DNA of 64,000 bases from Dictyostelium discoideum (taxonomy: Eukaryota). The notes beneath the pieces were generated by a model. The model saw nothing but the letters and a program-made list of their open reading frames with translations. It made no database searches and was not told where the DNA came from. Made by a program: the position numbers and the translations under genes. Of this stretch, positions 9,800 through 18,663 are shown piece after piece. How positions within the stretch are numbered: the first letter of the stretch is position 1; each line of letters starts with the position of its first letter. The stretch is from contig CM000150.2 in the NCBI GenBank assembly GCA_000004695.1, forward strand, positions 224,001 to 288,000, written 5' to 3'.

Positions 9800-10788
9800 A
9801 TGAATAACAACCAAAATATGAATAGAAACTACAATAACAATCAAAATAATAGTAATAATAATACTAATAATAACGGCAATAGTAACCAAAATAATATGGG
9901 TATGAATATGAATATGAATATGAATATGAATATGAATATGAACAATAATAACAATATGAATGGAATGGGTGGAGGTAATAACATGATGATGAATAATGGG
10001 ATGAATAATTTTAATAATTCATCAAACTCTTTTATGTATAATAACAATAATACTAATATGAATGGCATGAATAATATGAATATGAATAATTTCAATGGTT
10101 ATAATAATAATAATAATAATAATAATAATTATAACGGATCTAATAACATGAATGGTGGAAATAATAATAATAATAATAATAATATGAATAACCATAATAA
10201 TAATAATATTAATAATAATAATAACTATAATAATAACAATAATAACAATAATAACAAAAAAGTTATACTCCCAAAAAATTTTACAAACCACGATGGCCCA
10301 ATTCTCATTAAGGATAATAATGGTAATGATTTCTTTAATTTACATGTATTTACACATTTTGAAAAAAAAAAAAAAAAAAAATGTTTAAAATGATAAATCA
10401 TTTTTACTTTCACAAAAAAAAAAAAAGAAAAAGATATGTTTGGTTTTTTTTTTTTTTTTTCTTCCTCTTTCTTTAAATGATCAACCATTTTTACTTTAAC
10501 AAAAAAAAAAAAAAAAAAAGATATTTTTTTTCTTTTTTTTTTTTATTATTTTTTTTTTATTTGTTTTGAATGATTGATTTGGATACAAACTTTTGAATGA
10601 AACATTTTTTTTTTATCATTTTTTTCAAAAATAAATTTATTTATTTATTTTTGTTTCAACCCATAAATACTAATCTTTTATTATAAAATAATTTATTCAC
10701 AATTTTTTTTTTTTCTACACTGACTTTGATTTTATATATCTTTAAATTGTCCCTTTTTTTTTTTTGATATCAAAAATAATAATTATTA

Positions 10789-10819
<31 letters not shown>

Positions 10820-12723
10820 TTTTTTTTTTTTGTTTTAGGTAAAGTTATAGGTGAAAAAGAAAAACTTGGTAGAACTCTTTTTGTTAGAAATGTTGCATAC
10901 TCCATTAAAGAAGTTGATATTCCTGCTATATTTGCAAAGATTGGTGAGATTAAAAAAACATTTTCTTTGTTAGAGTCAAGAGGTATTGCTTTTATTTCAT
11001 ATGTAAGGTTTTTTTTTTTTTTTTTTTTTTTTTTATTTTTTTTTATTTTTTTTATATATATCCCAGAATATATTTTTATTTACTAACCAATGTATTATTT
11101 TAATTTTCATTTACTAATCAGTATGATTTGAGAGATGCTGAAAGAGCAAAAAATGAAATACAAGGTACAACACTGGATGGTAGATCCATTGATATCCATT
11201 TTTCAATTCCAAAGGAGGAAAGTGGACTTGAGGACAATGCCGGTTTTATTCATGTCAAAAATCGTGATGTTCCTTTGAATGAGGTCAGAATTTTCTTTTC
11301 TAGCTATGGTGACATTAAGGATGTTACAGAGTTTAATCGTGATCAAGTGTGAGTAATCAAATAATAATAATAATAACAACACCACCACCAAAAGTATATT
11401 GAGTTTTTACTAATATTAGGTATATTTATATATTTATTTGTAGACTTGTTGAGTTTTATGATTTAAGAGCATGTGAAAAAGCATTGGCAGAGGCCAATGG
11501 GGTGAAATTAGGTGACCAAACATTAGATTTGGACTATTACACTCCAAAGGAAATACCAGCTATCATTGATGCATATGAGGGTAGAAAACAAAACAATAAC
11601 AATAGTAACAACAGCAACAACAATAATAGAGGTGGAATGAATAATCGTAATAACTATAACCGTAGAGATAATAATAACAACAACAACAACAACAACAACA
11701 ATGACGATAGTGATAATAGAAAGAGAAATAATATGGGAGGAAACTTTAATAATAACAATAGAGGAATGGATTTTAATAAAAGCGGCCCAATTAGAAATGT
11801 TTATCAAACTGATAGAAATCCAGATTACAGAAGACGTGATGATAACAATTATAATAATAGTAATAGTAATAACAACAACTCTCGTAAGTATACAGATTCA
11901 GGTGACAAAAGTTACAAAAGTGAGTGATGAATTTTGATTAAAAAAAAAAAAAATTTCTCTTCTCTCTTTAACCATTTTGAGAATTACAATTAAATGTATG
12001 TATTTTCATTACAAAATTTATTAACCATATCTTTATTTTTCAGGTAATCAAAATAACTACAGTAACAGTGTGAATAACTATAATAATAATAATAATAATA
12101 ATAATAGTAACAATAATAACAATAATAATAATAATAGCCACAACAATATGAACCAAAACAGTTATTACAATGATAATAGTGGAGGTGGTATTTACAATAA
12201 TATGAATAGCAATTTCAATAGTAATAATAATAATAATAATAATAATAGTGGTAGTAATAGTAATACTAATGGTGGGTGGAATAATAATAATAGTAATAGT
12301 AATAATATGAACAATATGAATATGAATAATAATATGAATAATAATATGAATAATAATATGAATAATAATATGAATAATAATATGAATAATAACATGAACA
12401 ACATGAACAAAAATATGAACAACAACAACAACAATATGAACAATAACAACAACAATAACAACATGAACAATAGCAACAACATGGGCTACGGAAATAGCAA
12501 TAATAGTAATTATAATTTTAACTATAATAATATATCTAATCCCTCTAATAATTTTAATAACAATAATTATAATAATTCATTCATAAACTATTCAGAGCCA
12601 AGTTTCCCTAATGATGGCGCAAGCCCAGAAATCTTGGCAAATATATCTCAACTAGCCCAAACTTTGAAAATTCCATTCCAATGGAACGCAAATAATATTA
12701 GTAGCAATGTACAAAATAAATAA
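9800..12723 (+). CDS. Mei2-like RNA-binding protein (two Mei2-type RRMs) with very long Asn/Met-rich low-complexity N- and C-terminal regions; join(9800..10322,10839..11002,11122..11348,11444..11919,12044..12723)
   Basis: Exons 2-4 encode GRTLFVRNVAY...GIAFISY|YDLRDAERAKNEIQG...DIHFSIPKEE and GFIHVKNRDVPLNEVRIFFSSYGDIKDV...LVEFYDLRACEKALAEANG. These align by eye with Mei2/AML RRM1-RRM2 signatures (RTLFVRNI..., GFVMISYYDIRAA, DIHFSIPKDN, FIEFYDVRAAEAAL). Every intron begins GTAATG/GTAAGG/GTGAGT and ends TAG/CAG, and phases are consistent. The real ATG is at 9800, preceded by a (CAAAA)n leader. The stop is at 12721-12723. Confidence 0.6.
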
Positions 12724-12907
12724 GATTTCCTGTTCTCTCTCTTTCTCTCTTCAAACAATTACAACAAATTAATAAACTTTAAAAATTTTAATACACATTT
12801 TTTTTTTTTTTTTTTTTTTAATAAATAATATTTATGTTTATGTTTTTATTTTTATTTTTATTTTCCTTGTATTTGTATTTTTATTTTCCTTTGTATTTGT
12901 ATTTTTG

Positions 12908-12909
<2 letters not shown>

Positions 12910-12987
<78 letters not shown>

Positions 12988-12988
12988 T
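12910..12988. repeat. (TTA)n trinucleotide microsatellite (~25 units) in the 3' flank of the Mei2-like gene / 3' flank of the SET-domain gene
   Basis: An uninterrupted TTATTATTA... run is visible. It is preceded by a duplicated roughly 26-bp unit (TTCCTTGTATTTGTATTTTTATTT). Confidence 0.85.
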
Positions 12989-12991
12989 TAA

Positions 12992-14491
12992 TTATAATTC
13001 ATCTTTAATCTTTCTATCTACACTATCTTTACTATCTTTACTATCGATTGTATCTATATTTTCTTGAAGTTTTGTATATACATTGGAAAGGATTTGTTTT
13101 TCTTGAAAAGCCAAATTAAAGGCCAATTTGGAACGTGCTGAAAGTTGATTATACTCTTTTGAAAGTAAAAACTCTTTATCCTGTATGATTGTTGTTGGAT
13201 AATGTCCAATCTTTAATGATACCAATCTCTTTAAATATTCCAATAACGATTCTTGCTTGTATGACATATACTTTGAAATCTTTAATAAATCCTCTGTCAA
13301 TGAATCCATTGAAATCTTTAATTTTATATCTTTGGTTTCTAATAATTTATTAACTAAATAATATTTATCATCTTTAATTGGATCCTATTTTTTAAAAAGT
13401 AAATTAATTAAAGAGAAATAAAATAAAATAAAATAAAATAATTTTTTTTAAAAAAAAAAACTTACATCAAGATTAATTGTTTCTAATAATTCTTCCATTA
13501 AAACATTTACACAAGATTTATCATCAATTTGGTTGGGTAAATAACCATAGTCCACTAAAAGATCACTTCCACAATAGTGATGATCATAGCTTACAAATAT
13601 TTCTTCACCTTTTTTAATATCTTTGATGGCTTTTACATCGACAGAACCCAACTCTTCATTGTAATCGATCTCAGCTGATGGTTGATTGCCATGATTGAAA
13701 TAATCAACAATTGGTGGAACCACAGGTGATAATTTCATTTGTTTGCCATCGGAGCCTACACTATCTGGATCGGTGACATAAATTTTACGAGCTGTAATGG
13801 TTGAATGTGCCCACCTAAATTGATCCCAACCGATGATGGTTGATTGACCTTGACACATTTCCAAGATCACATTATCTTTGAATAGGGTTTGTGATAATTG
13901 ATCGTAGAGTTTGGTTGCTACCTCTTTCTCAACCATGATATCTACAAAGGCAGGTGAACCAGCAAGGTATTCAATCTCTTTCTCGTCAAAGTACAAGGAT
14001 GTATCATAGTGGGTTGGTAATGAAGTAACCCATTCCTTTAGATTAAATGTTTCTTTGGCCATACAATGTTTGTAAATAATTAAACCAACCGCTAATATAT
14101 CCTCTTGTGCCATATTAAAGTGAACCATTCTTTCAAAGATATCTCTTTGTTCCACTTGAATAGTATCTACACTTAGACAACTTGTCCATTTGACTGCGAG
14201 TAACTCTGTTCCACTTTCAATCTTTGCATCGGCAAATACACCATATTCATCCTCTTTTCTATCTTTTTCCTTTAAAATCTCTTGCTCATCTTTAATTAAC
14301 TTTTTTTGAACAGAGAATAAAGGGTTCTTTTTATAGAATCTCGACCATTTATTCAATCTATTAATTGATCTTTTTCGATATTCATTGATTTTATCTTTTT
14401 CACTGGTTTCATTTGATTTTGTTACTTCTCCAAATACAAATGATATCGTTATTAATAATAATAATACAACAACTAATGTATTAAGTTTCAT
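12992..14491 (-). CDS. SET-domain protein methyltransferase (SETD3/LSMT-like, with C-terminal Rubisco-LSMT substrate-binding-like helical region), N-terminal signal peptide and C-terminal KDEL; complement(join(12992..13384,13466..14491)), 472 aa
   Basis: The N-terminus MKLNTLVVVLLLLITISFVFG|EVT is a classic cleavable signal peptide. SET motifs are present: DYFNHG (the NH motif) and GEEIFVSYDHHYCGSDLLVDYGY (the post-SET ELxxSYG..LLxxYGF region). The intron (13385-13465) has donor GTAAGT and acceptor ATAG, in phase 0. The final exon ends ...VDRKIKDEL-TAA, the canonical ER-retrieval signal. Confidence 0.6.
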
Positions 14492-14721: not shown

Positions 14722-15224
14722 ATGAAGCCTAATAATATGAAACAAACAAATATTAGTCAATTTTTTGCTCCAACAAAACAACCAGAGCCAATTATAGAGG
14801 TAAAAAAAAAAAAATTGATAGTTTTTTATTTATTTTTTTTTTTATTTAAATCTAATGGGTTTTAAAATTTTTTTTTTTCATTTATTTAGGAAGGATTTGA
14901 TTCATTTTTTGATGATATACCTACAGAAGAGTTAGAACCAGATTTAAATTCTATACCAATTTCCTCTTCACAGCAAACATCTACATCAAATACCTCTTCA
15001 CAACAAACATCTTCAGCAAATACATCATCTTCAGCCACTACTACCACTACTACTAATACTAATTCACAAATACCGAAAGCACCAACAACACCATCAAAAC
15101 TAAAGCTACCAACTTCTTTCACATCAAAATCAAATACACCAACCAAATCATTACCACCATCAAATTTTAGTTTGGTAGTCAATGAACAAGAAGAAGAAAA
15201 TGAAATGAACGATAATTCAAAACC

Positions 15225-15255
<31 letters not shown>

Positions 15256-18200
15256 AATTTATTTAAAAGTAATATAACCAGTAATAGTGGTGGTAGTAGT
15301 AATGATTTATTTTCTAGATTTAAAGATGAAAAACCAAAGACTACAACTACCCTTTCTACACCTTCAAAACCATTATCGCAACCACAAAGAAATAACACAA
15401 ATGAAATATCAAAAAAAAGAAAAGAAATGGATTTTAATGAAGATGAATCGAATACAAATTATGATAATAATAATAATGATGTTGAGGATTTAGATGAGTT
15501 TTGTTTTGTTAATAAAAATAAACCATCATCATCATCATCATCATTAAATACCAATACTACAACTACACCAAAAGCACCAACTATAACACCAAAAACTCCA
15601 ACTAAAACTCCAACAAGAAGACCAGTCGTTACATATGATGAGGATGATGACGATGATGAACAAGATGATGATGAGGATGACGACGATGATGACGATGATA
15701 AAAAATCAAAATCAACAACAACGACAGCAGTAAAGAAAAAAGGTAATGCATTTGGTAAAAAAGATAAAAAAGAGATAGAAGAGAGATATTCATTCCTTGT
15801 CAATATAAAAGATGCCAATGGTAATCCAAAGGATCATCCAGATTATGATAAGAGAACATTACATATACCAGCAAGTTGTCTATCGAAATTCTCACCATTT
15901 GAAAGACAATTTTGGGATATTAAATCAAAAAACTACGATACGGTTGTATTCTTCAAAAAGGGTAAATTCTATGAACTCTACGAGAGTGATGCTGATATCG
16001 GTCATCAACAACTTCACTTGAAACTTACTGATCGTGTCAATATGCGTATGGTTGGTGTACCAGAGATGTCCTTTAATCATTGGGCTTCAAAGTTAATTCA
16101 TTTGGGTCATAAAGTGGCCAAGGTAGATCAAATGGAGACATCAATCGGCATGGCAAAGAGACAGAATGAAAAAGGTGGTCGTAATAAAAAAGATTCAATC
16201 ATTCAGAGAGAGTTAACTTCAATTCTTACCGCTGGTACACTTTTGGATGAACAAATGATCACCGATCAAACTTCAACCTATCTTATGGCCATAAAAGAGA
16301 ATGAATACGATAAACAGTATGGCGTTTGTTTTGTCGATGTATCAATTGGTGAATTCTATCTTTGTACCATTCAAGACGATGATAATCGTATGCAATTCGA
16401 AACGCTACTCCTTCAAATGATGCCAAAGGAAATCGTCTATGAAAAGGGCGCAACCTCTCCAAAAACCATCTCCATTATGAAGCGTGTTCTCTCCACTGTT
16501 AAACCAGTCATGAATGCTCGTCTCTCTCTAGAATATTGGGACCCAACAGACACTATGGAACGTATCACTCAGCTTTGTGGTGGTAAAACACCAGAGACCC
16601 TCTGTCAAATGAAAAATGAAGAATATCTAATGGGTGCATTGGGTGGTTGTATCAGTTATCTCATGGATATAAAGATTGGTAATAGCGTCGTTGAACAAGC
16701 TCGTTTCAAACGTTTCAATCCATTGGATATTGGAAACTCTATGATTTTGGATGGCCAATGCTTGGTGAACTTGGAGATATTCAACAATAGTACCGATGGT
16801 TCAACTGAGGGTACTCTTTTCAAGTTGATGGATCGTTGTACCACTGCCTTTGGAAAACGTATGTTTAGGCAATGGATTTGTAGGCCATTGGCAAATAAGA
16901 ATGCAATTGTTGATCGTCAAAAGGCAATCGAATTCCTAAGAGATAGTCCTGAAACCCTTCAAAAAGTAACGGCTATCCTCAACAAACTACCTGATCTCGA
17001 AAGAATGATCGCAAGAATTCGTGCTCAAACTTCAAAAATCTCTGATCTCATTTCAGTTTTAAATCACTTTGATAATATACATTCAAAACTATTGGAGCTA
17101 TTGGATGAAGCAGAACAAATCGAATCTATTCACCTAAGAAGTTGTCTTTTTATGGATAATCAACAAGACAACGACGATATTGATGAACAAGAAAACAGTA
17201 ACAACAACAACAACATTCGTTATTCTGGTTATCCAAATCTTAAACCCTATATTGAACGTGTTAGAAAGAGTTTTACCATTGAACAAGATCGTGTGGTACC
17301 ATCAAAAGGTTTGTTTTTAGAGTTTGATCAATGTTTAGGCAATATTCAATCATTGGAACAATCGTTTGCAAAACATTTAGAGGAACAAAAAGCTCATTTC
17401 AAGTGTAACAAAATCGAATATAAACATATGGGTAAAGAGATCTATCAAATAGAGATACCCGTTGCATTTACAAAAAAGCTTCCAGCAGGTTTCTCTTTAA
17501 AATCATCAAGCTCCAAAGTTAATAGATATCACAGTCCATTCGTTACAAAGAATCTCACCTCTTTGTTGGAAGAACGTGATACCTATGAGGTGTTATCAAA
17601 AGAGGTTTTGAAAAAGATTCTATCAAATTTCGCAATCTATTTCAATCATTTCCAAATTGCAATTACAAAACTCTCTCAATTGGATTGTCTGTTATCTTTA
17701 TATAAAGTTAGTTTTCAATCTTCAATTCAAATGTGTCGTCCCCTATTCGTCTCTAGTGATCAACGTGGTTTCATTGATGTAAAAGATATGAGACATCCTT
17801 GTATCTATTCAAAATCTGGTGATGATTTCATTCCAAATGATATATCTTTAAATACTGAAAATAATCCTCCATCTTTAATGGTTTTAACTGGTCCTGTAAG
17901 TTTTATTAATAATTGTTAAAATTTAATTAATAACTAAAATTTAAATTTTTTTATATTTTTTTAGAATATGGGTGGTAAAAGTACATTATTACGTCAATCA
18001 TGTATTTTAGTAATCATGGCACAAATGGGTTGTTATGTATCAGCATCAAGTTGCGAAATGTCAATTGTAGATAGAATTTTCACTCGTTTAGGTGCAAATG
18101 ATAATATTTTAGCAGGTCAATCAACATTTATGGTTGAATTGGCAGAAACAAGCGCAGTTCTAAAGTATGCAACCAAACGATCATTGGTTATTTTGGATGA

Positions 18201-18663
18201 GTTGGGTAGAGGTACAAGTACATTTGATGGTTATTCAATTGCATATTCAGTTTTAAATTATTTAGCAACCAAAGTTCAATCGATGTGTATATTCGCAACT
18301 CACTATCAATCATTGGCATATGAACCAACAGTTCGTGATCTCATTTCCACAGCATATATGACTTGTCATGTTGATGAAGAGGCTAAAAAAGTTATATTCC
18401 TCTACAAATTGGCAAGTGGTGTTTGTCCAAATTCATATGGTCTTCATGTTGCTTCAATGGCTGGTTTACCAAGAGAAATCATTACAAAGGCTGAAGAAAA
18501 ATCAACTCAAATGGAAAAAGACTCTGTTTTGGTCTCATTCATTCATGGTACCATATCTCGTTCGAAATTGGTTGAAAAAATAGTTCAATCATACAAACAA
18601 AAAGATTTGAACCAATTAATTCAATTATCAAATACTTTAAAAGATTTAAATTTAAATAAATAG
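14722..18663 (+). CDS. msh6: DNA mismatch repair protein MSH6 (MutS homologue); join(14722..14799,14890..17895,17965..18663)
   Basis: Exon 1 is [26 protein letters not shown] and contains a PIP box (QTNISQFF) of the kind found at MSH6/MSH3 N-termini. Exon 2 has an acidic D/E stretch. The MutS domain I carries the MSH6-specific mismatch-binding motif [30 protein letters not shown] is connector/lever-like. Exon 3 opens with the Walker A LTGP|[11 protein letters not shown], followed by [14 protein letters not shown] (Walker B) and the HTH region. Introns are GTAAAA..TAG and GTAAGT..TAG, with consistent phases. Confidence 0.85.

Follow-up and report, generated by a model that had tools for sequence, protein, structure and literature searches.

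SET-domain enzymes are known to methylate proteins in the nucleus, the cytosol and the plastid, and the lumen of the endoplasmic reticulum (ER) is seen as a compartment of folding, glycosylation and disulfide chemistry. Whether a SET-domain methyltransferase may also operate inside the ER lumen is the question raised by a gene of Dictyostelium discoideum, DDB_G0267502, which occupies positions 12,992 to 14,491 on the minus strand of the stretch shown above (a window of 64,000 nucleotides (nt) from contig CM000150.2, to which all coordinates below refer). In the current work, its gene structure, domain architecture, fold class, S-adenosylmethionine (SAM)-site residues and the conservation of its two sorting signals were established from the sequence by means of computational tools. 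The initial annotation of this locus had proposed an ER-lumenal methyltransferase, and as a prediction this is supported by a conserved signal peptide, a conserved K/RDEL terminus and an intact SAM site; judged from the two sorting signals, residence of the protein in the ER lumen appears highly probable.

Two sorting signals on one SET-domain protein

The gene comprises two exons on the minus strand, the spliced product of which is a protein of 472 residues that begins with MKLNTLVVVLLLLITISFVFG followed by E and ends in KDEL. The features on which this description is based are the following:

13466..14491, minus strand: coding exon 1 (1026 nt, residues 1-342), from the ATG at 14491 to the GTAAGT donor at 13465, encoding the signal peptide, an N-terminal linker and the SET domain including the iSET insertion
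13385..13465, minus strand: single phase-0 intron of 81 nt (GTAAGT...TAG), with 7% GC as against 31% GC in the exons and with in-frame stops if retained
12992..13384, minus strand: coding exon 2 (residues 343-472 and the TAA stop codon at 12992-12994), encoding a C-terminal helical domain of the substrate-binding type, a variable tail and KDEL
14429..14491, minus strand: predicted cleavable signal peptide, residues 1-21 (MK, LNTLVVVLLLLITISFVFG, then EV), from heuristic n/h/c-region analysis
13007..13060, minus strand: variable acidic/Ser-Lys tail, residues 451-468, conservation 0.26, with a length that varies among species and with a 9-nt tandem repeat
12995..13006, minus strand: KDEL codons AAA GAT GAA TTA, an ER-retrieval signal, followed directly by the stop codon

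The spliced product is identical, residue for residue, to that of the curated D. discoideum AX4 gene model DDB_G0267502 (XP_647084.1; UniProt Q55GV0), for which the databases offer just the names 'hypothetical protein' or 'SET domain-containing protein'. Position and phase of the intron are shared with the orthologues of Polysphondylium violaceum (65 nt) and D. purpureum (86 nt). The coordinates, the strand and the intron at 13385-13465 that brings KDEL in frame, all proposed in the initial annotation, consequently match the curated model, with an intron that is conserved in two distant species. A different 3' exon, considered there as a possible flaw, was not found: exon 2 carries the LSMT/SETD3-type C-terminal domain that is expected after the SET domain of this class. 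Annotation of the gene as such is not new; the novelty lies in the proposal, for which there is good support, that a whole conserved clade of SET proteins resides in the ER lumen.

Signal peptides were called by a heuristic analysis of n-, h- and c-regions combined with Kyte-Doolittle hydropathy, from which cleavage is deduced. The D. discoideum N-terminus has an n-region MK with a charge of +1, a 17-residue uncharged core (maximum Kyte-Doolittle value for an 11-residue window of 3.63), a (-3,-1) site V-F-G|E, and acidic residues downstream, this acidic flank being shared with its close relatives. Each of the seven orthologues examined possesses a positive n-region (MK..., with one or two charges), an uncharged hydrophobic core of 12-18 residues and a small-residue (-3,-1) site, and in none of them does a 19-residue window beyond residue 40 reach a mean Kyte-Doolittle value above 1.6, i.e., no further transmembrane segment was detected. 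The description of this N-terminus as a textbook signal peptide is thus upheld, at the level of a heuristic, by the n/h/c features. A mitochondrial presequence was rejected as an alternative because the N-terminus lacks Arg-rich amphipathic character. A cytosolic isoform from a downstream start was likewise rejected: the next methionine is residue 122, within the SET domain, and initiation there could not yield an intact protein.

The length of the hydrophobic core raises the possibility that the N-terminal stretch is not cleaved, in which case the product would be a type II signal-anchored ER membrane protein with its SET domain and KDEL in the lumen. Cores of 17-18 residues, as present in most orthologues, are at the long end for signal peptides, the positive n-region and acidic downstream flank of the D. 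discoideum protein suit an N-in/C-out orientation, and the structural model described below has residues 3-22 as a separate helix. However, all orthologues examined possess a (-3,-1) cleavage motif, the core of the P. violaceum protein measures only 12 residues, and KDEL retrieval is typical of soluble residents, membrane residents usually employing other signals. An uncleaved anchor is considered improbable on these grounds, and it would change little, since the catalytic domain and KDEL would still be lumenal.

At the other end of the protein, an ER signal was scored when the extreme C-terminus conformed to [KRHQSA]-[DENQ]-E-L. Among dictyostelid species with an intact C-terminus, KDEL is found in 8/9 and RDEL in the remaining one (Acytostelium), and a signal peptide was called in all nine species with an intact N-terminus. 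The combination of a signal peptide with K/RDEL occurs in D. discoideum, D. cf. discoideum, D. citrinum, D. dimigraforme, D. firmibasis, D. purpureum, P. violaceum, Cavenderia fasciculata (KDEL) and Acytostelium subglobosum (RDEL), meaning that both sorting signals have been kept in every major dictyostelid group, down to 32-45% overall identity. Conservation of the tetrapeptide is 0.86, as compared to 0.26 for the 18 residues that precede it. The 9-nt tandem repeat in this part of the coding sequence (13008-13045, 4.3 copies) encodes SKD units just before KDEL, and the variation in tail length among species is partly due to it. A C-terminal KDEL would be expected from the protein's own composition with a probability of ~8e-5, and a chance origin was rejected on the basis of this figure and of a tetrapeptide that is fixed (or RDEL) beside a drifting tail. 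That the protein ends exactly in KDEL, as had been claimed, is seen in the DNA, in the curated model and in the orthologues.

The same observations bear on the notion that the protein is not an ER resident at all, being either secreted or delivered to a post-ER compartment despite KDEL, or cytosolic with a non-working signal and a fortuitous KDEL. Signal-peptide-bearing relatives without a strict KDEL (in Stenamoeba, Pellita, Ancoracysta and Clastostelium) point to secretory destinations other than the ER in the wider family, and nothing else speaks positively for it. Against it stand the low chance expectation and the fixation of the tetrapeptide in all dictyostelid groups, the position of the next methionine, and the fact that the variants encountered (KDEL, RDEL, HDEL and HNEL) are functionally equivalent receptor ligands; a location outside the ER is accordingly regarded as very unlikely.

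Two database entries depart from the pattern at the C-terminus. In the Heterostelium album entry XP_020433518.1 (P0013 in our homologue set), 'SAKDEL' (KDEL at residues 453-456) is present where homology ends, and the model, which is also mis-called N-terminally, runs on into Dcp2; the fused entry is consequently named 'mRNA-decapping enzyme 2'. In P0011, a dictyostelid entry from eukprot, the SET-KDEL gene is fused to a His-rich CDF/ZnT-like transporter just past 'SPKDE', at about residue 520. In both cases the gene model has probably been carried past the stop codon after KDEL, at which TTG/TTA and the ensuing TAA look like a GTAA donor.

Domain composition and fold class

Two Pfam profiles match the protein, both above their gathering cut-off, as found upon the profile check that had been suggested in the initial annotation:

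13586..14245, minus strand: SET domain (PF00856), residues 83-302; 42.6 bits (cut-off 22.4), E 8.7e-11, profile positions 2-104 of 105
13088..13258, minus strand: core of the Rubisco-LSMT-type substrate-binding domain (PF09273, Rubis-subs-bind), residues 385-441; 23.0 bits (cut-off 21.6), aligning with SETD3 residues 427-480

The best relative of solved structure by sequence is SETD3 (E 3.9e-14 with the single sequence, 1e-19 with an orthologue profile), followed by Rubisco LSMT (1.6e-10), SETD6 (1.5e-6) and then PAP7/pTAC14 (2e-4). An AlphaFold (AF2) model was generated from a 127-sequence alignment headed by P0001, a 96%-identical orthologue that stands in for the D. discoideum protein, and reached a predicted local distance difference test (pLDDT) value of 89.6 and a predicted template modelling (pTM) score of 0.86; an earlier run on a six-sequence alignment (pLDDT 51.5) was discarded. 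When this model was compared over its full length by Foldseek, template modelling (TM) scores of 0.69, 0.66 and 0.61 were obtained for SETD3 (6mbj), SETD6 and LSMT, respectively, with alignments to the structures of these three proteins covering 456-484 columns and a TM range of 0.58-0.70. By sequence and predicted fold, the DDB_G0267502 protein genuinely belongs to the SETD3/SETD6/LSMT structural class, to which it had been assigned from the sequence letters.

SAM site and target pocket

Residue equivalences were derived from an alignment with a vertebrate-type SETD3 representative, the roles of the SETD3 residues being taken from published work (PMC6400499, PMC6684798). In SETD3, SAM is bound by Arg75, Glu104, Arg254, Asn278 (side chain), His279, Tyr313 and Phe327 (PMC6400499, PMC6684798), and the N278A substitution severely impairs kcat (PMC6400499). 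The counterparts in D. discoideum are:

SETD3 R254 (SAM-carboxylate arginine): R235
SETD3 N256: I237
SETD3 W274: V262
SETD3 D275: D263
SETD3 N278 and H279: N266 and H267
SETD3 Y313 (Y312/313): Y302
SETD3 F327: Y317

Three of these elements are placed in the window as follows:

13781..13789, minus strand: R235-K236-I237, with I237 at the SETD3 Asn255/256 position (Phe in LSMT and SETD6)
13691..13696, minus strand: NH motif N266-H267 (codons AAT CAT), the SAM-binding pair of SET domains
13586..13588, minus strand: conserved SET tyrosine Y302 (codon TAT)

The SAM-site residues are intact in D. discoideum and in 9/10 dictyostelid species, and R235 and I237 are invariant across the seven species that were aligned. 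The absence of key SET residues, which would have spoken against an enzyme, was thus not observed in D. discoideum, in which both SAM-binding and catalytic residues are present. As regards the motifs quoted in the initial annotation, NH is indeed present, and the string given as ELxxSYG...YGY in fact reads GEEIFVSYD...DYGY, with Y302 as the conserved SET tyrosine. Its statement that the protein appears catalytically competent holds for the residues of D. discoideum but not for every orthologue, as D. purpureum has lost the NH motif, the tyrosine and the SAM-site glycine. From the residues retained, catalytic activity of the D. discoideum protein is predicted to be likely.

The pocket that receives the target side chain differs from that of SETD3, in which it is formed by Asn255/256 and Trp273/274, with Phe and Ala in the corresponding places of LSMT and SETD6 (PMC6684798). 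In D. discoideum this histidine-pocket pair is Ile237 and Val262, and it is aliphatic or Phe throughout the ER clade. The Ile/Val pocket is hydrophobic and small to medium in size, differs from the Phe/Ala pair of LSMT and SETD6, and resembles the lysine-permissive N255V/A variants of SETD3 (PMC6684798). Because SETD3 N255A/V variants gain lysine activity (PMC6684798), lysine is the most economical guess for the target of the DDB_G0267502 protein, albeit one that we put forward tentatively.

The pocket also bears on whether the gene may simply be the Dictyostelium orthologue of SETD3, the actin His73 methyltransferase, which is indeed the best solved-structure match both by sequence and by fold. 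The histidine-specifying pair is replaced, and the positions of SETD3 Arg75 (a SAM contact peculiar to SETD3), Arg215 and Arg316 (both in contact with the actin peptide) hold a gap, Lys and Tyr, respectively, in D. discoideum and vary among orthologues (the N-terminal alignment being less certain), so that the protein is not taken to be the actin-His73 enzyme. Moreover, it falls in a clade different from that of vertebrate-type SETD3 in a neighbour-joining (NJ) tree, and actin is cytosolic, as opposed to the secretory and ER-retention signals of the DDB_G0267502 protein. An actin-histidine methyltransferase identity was rejected on the basis of pocket and tree, and SETD3 orthology is given next to no credence.

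Relatives beyond the dictyostelids

Homologues were collected by an exhaustive HMMER search of 1.84 billion representatives together with a cluster look-up, two further alignment-seeded searches adding only the C. fasciculata protein, one fragment and one clam SETD6-like protein. In an NJ tree of 125 family members, which is rough in that it is a distance method without support values, the sister of the dictyostelid clade consists of environmental KDEL/HDEL sequences. Among these, P0014 has a signal peptide and KDEL, P0016 a signal peptide and HDEL, P0017 and P0044 are fragments ending in HDEL, and P0093 ends in HNEL; P0159, a 90%-cluster mate of P0016, ends in RDEL. P0014 is encoded by an uninterrupted open reading frame (ORF) with an in-frame stop 5' of its ATG, and was recovered on 1.6-kb contigs in two independent run assemblies. 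Across 137 Met-initiated non-dictyostelid representatives, a signal-peptide-like N-terminus is associated with an ER-type C-terminus (4/15/2/116; Fisher one-sided p = 0.003).

A looser set of SETD3/LSMT-class proteins (P0055, P0108, P0113, P0143, P0042, P0137 and P0015) has signal-peptide-like N-termini without a strict KDEL and is found in Stenamoeba, Pellita, Clastostelium (ending in KQEL), Ancoracysta and environmental contigs. One of them, P0015, has two SET domains in tandem, and its record is flagged as a contaminant in a chytrid assembly. Judging from these termini, secretory-pathway SET proteins may be more widespread in protists than recognised.

Genomic neighbourhood

The surrounding window is dictyostelid-like in character, having a GC content of 23%, ORFs rich in Asn, and introns that are short and rich in AT. 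A MutS-family (MSH6-like) mismatch-repair gene with Pfam MutS domains I-V (14722-18663, plus strand) is divergent from the SET gene, from which it is separated by an AT-rich spacer of ~230 bp. A divergent MutS-family neighbour also lies beside the D. purpureum orthologue (locus L005), and the orthology of that gene is therefore supported by synteny as well. On the other side, a run of extremely Asn-rich ORFs (poly-N and N/M repeats; 9800-12723, plus strand) constitutes the upstream neighbour gene, the 3' end of which is ~270 bp from the stop codon of the SET gene; its segment 11484-11927 gave no Pfam match. A (TAT/ATT)n microsatellite of ~33 copies (12900-12999) abuts the SET-gene stop codon. 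This neighbourhood, i.e., the MutS/MSH6-like gene and the Asn-rich ORF, is without functional information for the SET gene and serves as synteny evidence only.

A proposed model for a probable ER-lumenal protein and its weighing

The model that we infer runs from translocation and signal cleavage through ER residence and SAM supply to catalysis, target residue and substrate. The signal peptide would drive co-translational translocation, probably with cleavage after Gly21, and the mature protein of ~450 residues would fold in the lumen into a SET domain and an LSMT-type helical substrate-recognition domain. This lumenal fold may be stabilised by the cysteine pairs C143/C213 and C307/C327, which are conserved in all dictyostelid orthologues and in P0014, cysteine being rare at those columns elsewhere (at most 8/112 of the remaining family members). 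Both cysteines of the C307/C327 pair are either present (also in P0093 and P0025) or absent (P0017, P0022 and P0044), P0016 being the sole exception, and such co-occurrence is how clade-specific disulfides may look, making these pairs candidate disulfides. Molecules that escape to the Golgi would be recognised by their KDEL end and brought back by the KDEL receptor. Once in the lumen, the enzyme would bind SAM through R235, D263, N266, H267, Y302 and Y317 and would methylate a specific lumenal or secretory-pathway protein on a side chain that is most likely lysine, or at least not histidine, given Ile237 and Val262. Taken as one chain, a soluble, KDEL-retrieved resident of the ER lumen belonging to the SETD3/LSMT class, which uses SAM to methylate a residue other than histidine (probably lysine) in a specific lumenal or secretory protein recognised by its C-terminal domain, is the explanation that we favour, with a confidence somewhat below that placed in activity as such.

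Several observations weigh against this explanation, in addition to the long hydrophobic core discussed above. The D. purpureum orthologue (DICPUDRAFT_152566; L005 1501-2978) shows G to S, NH to RR and Y to F changes at the SAM site, which are plain in its exon 1 codons (AGT; AGA CGT; TTT), with LYSMFA in place of EYGVFA, and which are no annotation artefact. In the environmental HDEL protein P0016, the corresponding changes are N to R and Y to L. As far as these residues can tell, catalysis is dispensable in at least some lineages, and the D. purpureum orthologue is a natural candidate pseudoenzyme. Among dictyostelids, moreover, conservation of the linker (0.58) and of the C-terminal domain (0.55) exceeds that of the SET core (0.47). 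No conserved N-glycosylation sequon was found in the orthologues, the single sequon (N27) not being conserved, and a literature search by gene ID retrieved no published mention of DDB_G0267502. We know of no SAM importer or transporter of the ER, and Dictyostelium is presumed to possess a KDEL receptor, literature searches for this receptor and for SETD3 in Dictyostelium having returned nothing specific. How much SAM the endomembrane system contains is, according to published work, not known (PMC9203272).

Because of the losses in D. purpureum and P0016, and because linker and C-terminal domain are better conserved than the SET core, a function that is separable from catalysis probably exists. 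Carried further, this leads to the main rival, according to which the protein is indeed ER-lumenal but mainly non-catalytic, a SET-fold binding, scaffold or chaperone-like (near-)pseudoenzyme that holds a lumenal partner by means of its C-terminal LSMT-type domain, methyl transfer being dispensable or vestigial. Such a role would fit a D. purpureum protein that has lost three SAM-site features while both sorting signals, the cysteine pairs and the C-terminal domain, as well as intron position and synteny of its gene, have been retained, it would fit P0016 with its signal peptide and HDEL, and it has precedents in PAP7/pTAC14, a structural subunit of the plastid RNA polymerase, and in METTL9, whose action in the secretory pathway is mainly through non-catalytic functions (PMC12313917). 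On the other hand, R, D, NH, Y and the aromatic residue of the SAM pocket have been retained by 9/10 dictyostelids and by the majority of the sister group at only 32-45% overall identity, a retention that would be unexpected had catalysis been irrelevant since the common ancestor, and the loss of NH and the Y to F change are seen on isolated branches only. A mainly non-catalytic protein is, in our estimation, unlikely, though less so than any other rival, and the lumenal methyltransferase is retained as the preferred explanation.

With respect to the setting in which such an enzyme would act, methyl marks on BiP/HSPA5 and SLC39A7 are attributed to seven-beta-strand enzymes, whose route to lumenal sites is not settled. 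Literature searches combining SET with KDEL or signal peptide, and for an ER-lumenal lysine methyltransferase, revealed no SET-domain enzyme with ER signals. A bacterial SAM-dependent enzyme that had been provided with the Kar2 signal and HDEL was active in the yeast ER lumen, less so than on the cytosolic face (PMC9203272), and for plants, candidate transporters of SAM in the Golgi have been described (bioRxiv 10.1101/2021.07.06.451061). METTL9 has a signal peptide and is N-glycosylated in the ER without possessing KDEL (PMC12313917), methyl-histidines have been mapped to ER-lumen-facing regions or loops of SLC39A7 (PMC13027442), and a conserved methyl-lysine, ascribed to METTL21A, is present on the ER resident BiP/HSPA5 (PMC10238732). 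There is thus some documentation of lumenal methylation, sparse as it is, and the view of the initial annotation that it is essentially undescribed was slightly overstated, given the ER entry of METTL9 and the lumen-facing methyl-histidines of SLC39A7.

If a SET enzyme is equipped with conserved signals for entry and retention, it would act as a dedicated writer in the lumen and would argue for SAM import into the ER. Dictyostelium is haploid, with routine knockouts and easy secretion assays, and is among the easiest eukaryotes to manipulate, so that location, activity and substrate can be tested directly. The natural loss of the catalytic site in D. purpureum provides a built-in comparison between catalytic and non-catalytic roles. 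In its broadest form, in which DDB_G0267502 would encode the founding, genetically tractable and active member of an old family of ER-lumen SET methyltransferases that extends over all Dictyostelia and to other protists (its members ending in KDEL, HDEL or RDEL) and places lysine or other non-histidine marks on lumenal or secretory proteins, the proposal is a possibility that the sequences suggest and that we hold with less assurance than the model for the single protein. This broad form would imply that the ER lumen has a dedicated SAM supply and a methylation system of its own for which no one has searched.

Comparison with known systems

The closest known system is SETD3, the actin histidine-73 N-methyltransferase (PDB 6mbj, 6icv and 3smt), with which the DDB_G0267502 protein shares a SET domain interrupted by iSET, a helical C-terminal domain of the LSMT type, and the residues equivalent to R254, D275, N278, H279 and Y313 together with an aromatic residue at F327. 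The two are otherwise unlike: identity is only ~18%, the histidine pocket is Ile/Val, Arg75, Arg215 and Arg316 are absent, SETD3 is cytosolic, as opposed to a protein with signal peptide and KDEL, and the dictyostelid clade lies apart from the vertebrate-type SETD3 representative P0063 in the rough NJ tree.

The lysine methyltransferases Rubisco LSMT (PDB 1mlv and 1ozv) and SETD6 (3qxy) resemble the protein in overall fold (TM 0.61 and 0.66, respectively) and in the Rubis-subs-bind match, and, like them, it has neither Asn nor Trp in the pocket for the target, a composition that points to a side chain other than histidine, plausibly lysine. They differ from it in having Phe and Ala in that pocket rather than Ile and Val (PMC6684798), and in their location, LSMT being plastidial and SETD6 nuclear or cytosolic, both without ER signals.

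PAP7/pTAC14 (PDB 8qma and 8w9z) is a member of the LSMT/SETD3 class that has likewise moved into an organelle, where it is a subunit of a larger complex in the solved structures, and is a useful analogue for a non-catalytic role. Unlike the DDB_G0267502 protein, it is plastidial, belongs to a transcription complex (the plastid-encoded RNA polymerase) and has no secretory signals, and it is by far more distant (E 2e-4, TM ~0.48) than the relatives named above.

METTL9, a protein histidine N1-methyltransferase, is the sole other protein methyltransferase found in the literature search that combines a signal peptide and ER entry with lumen-facing substrate sites. In contrast to the DDB_G0267502 protein, it has a Rossmann-like seven-beta-strand fold rather than a SET domain, carries no KDEL and moves on to the Golgi; there is debate about its topology, and the main part that it plays in development has been reported to be non-catalytic (PMC12313917).

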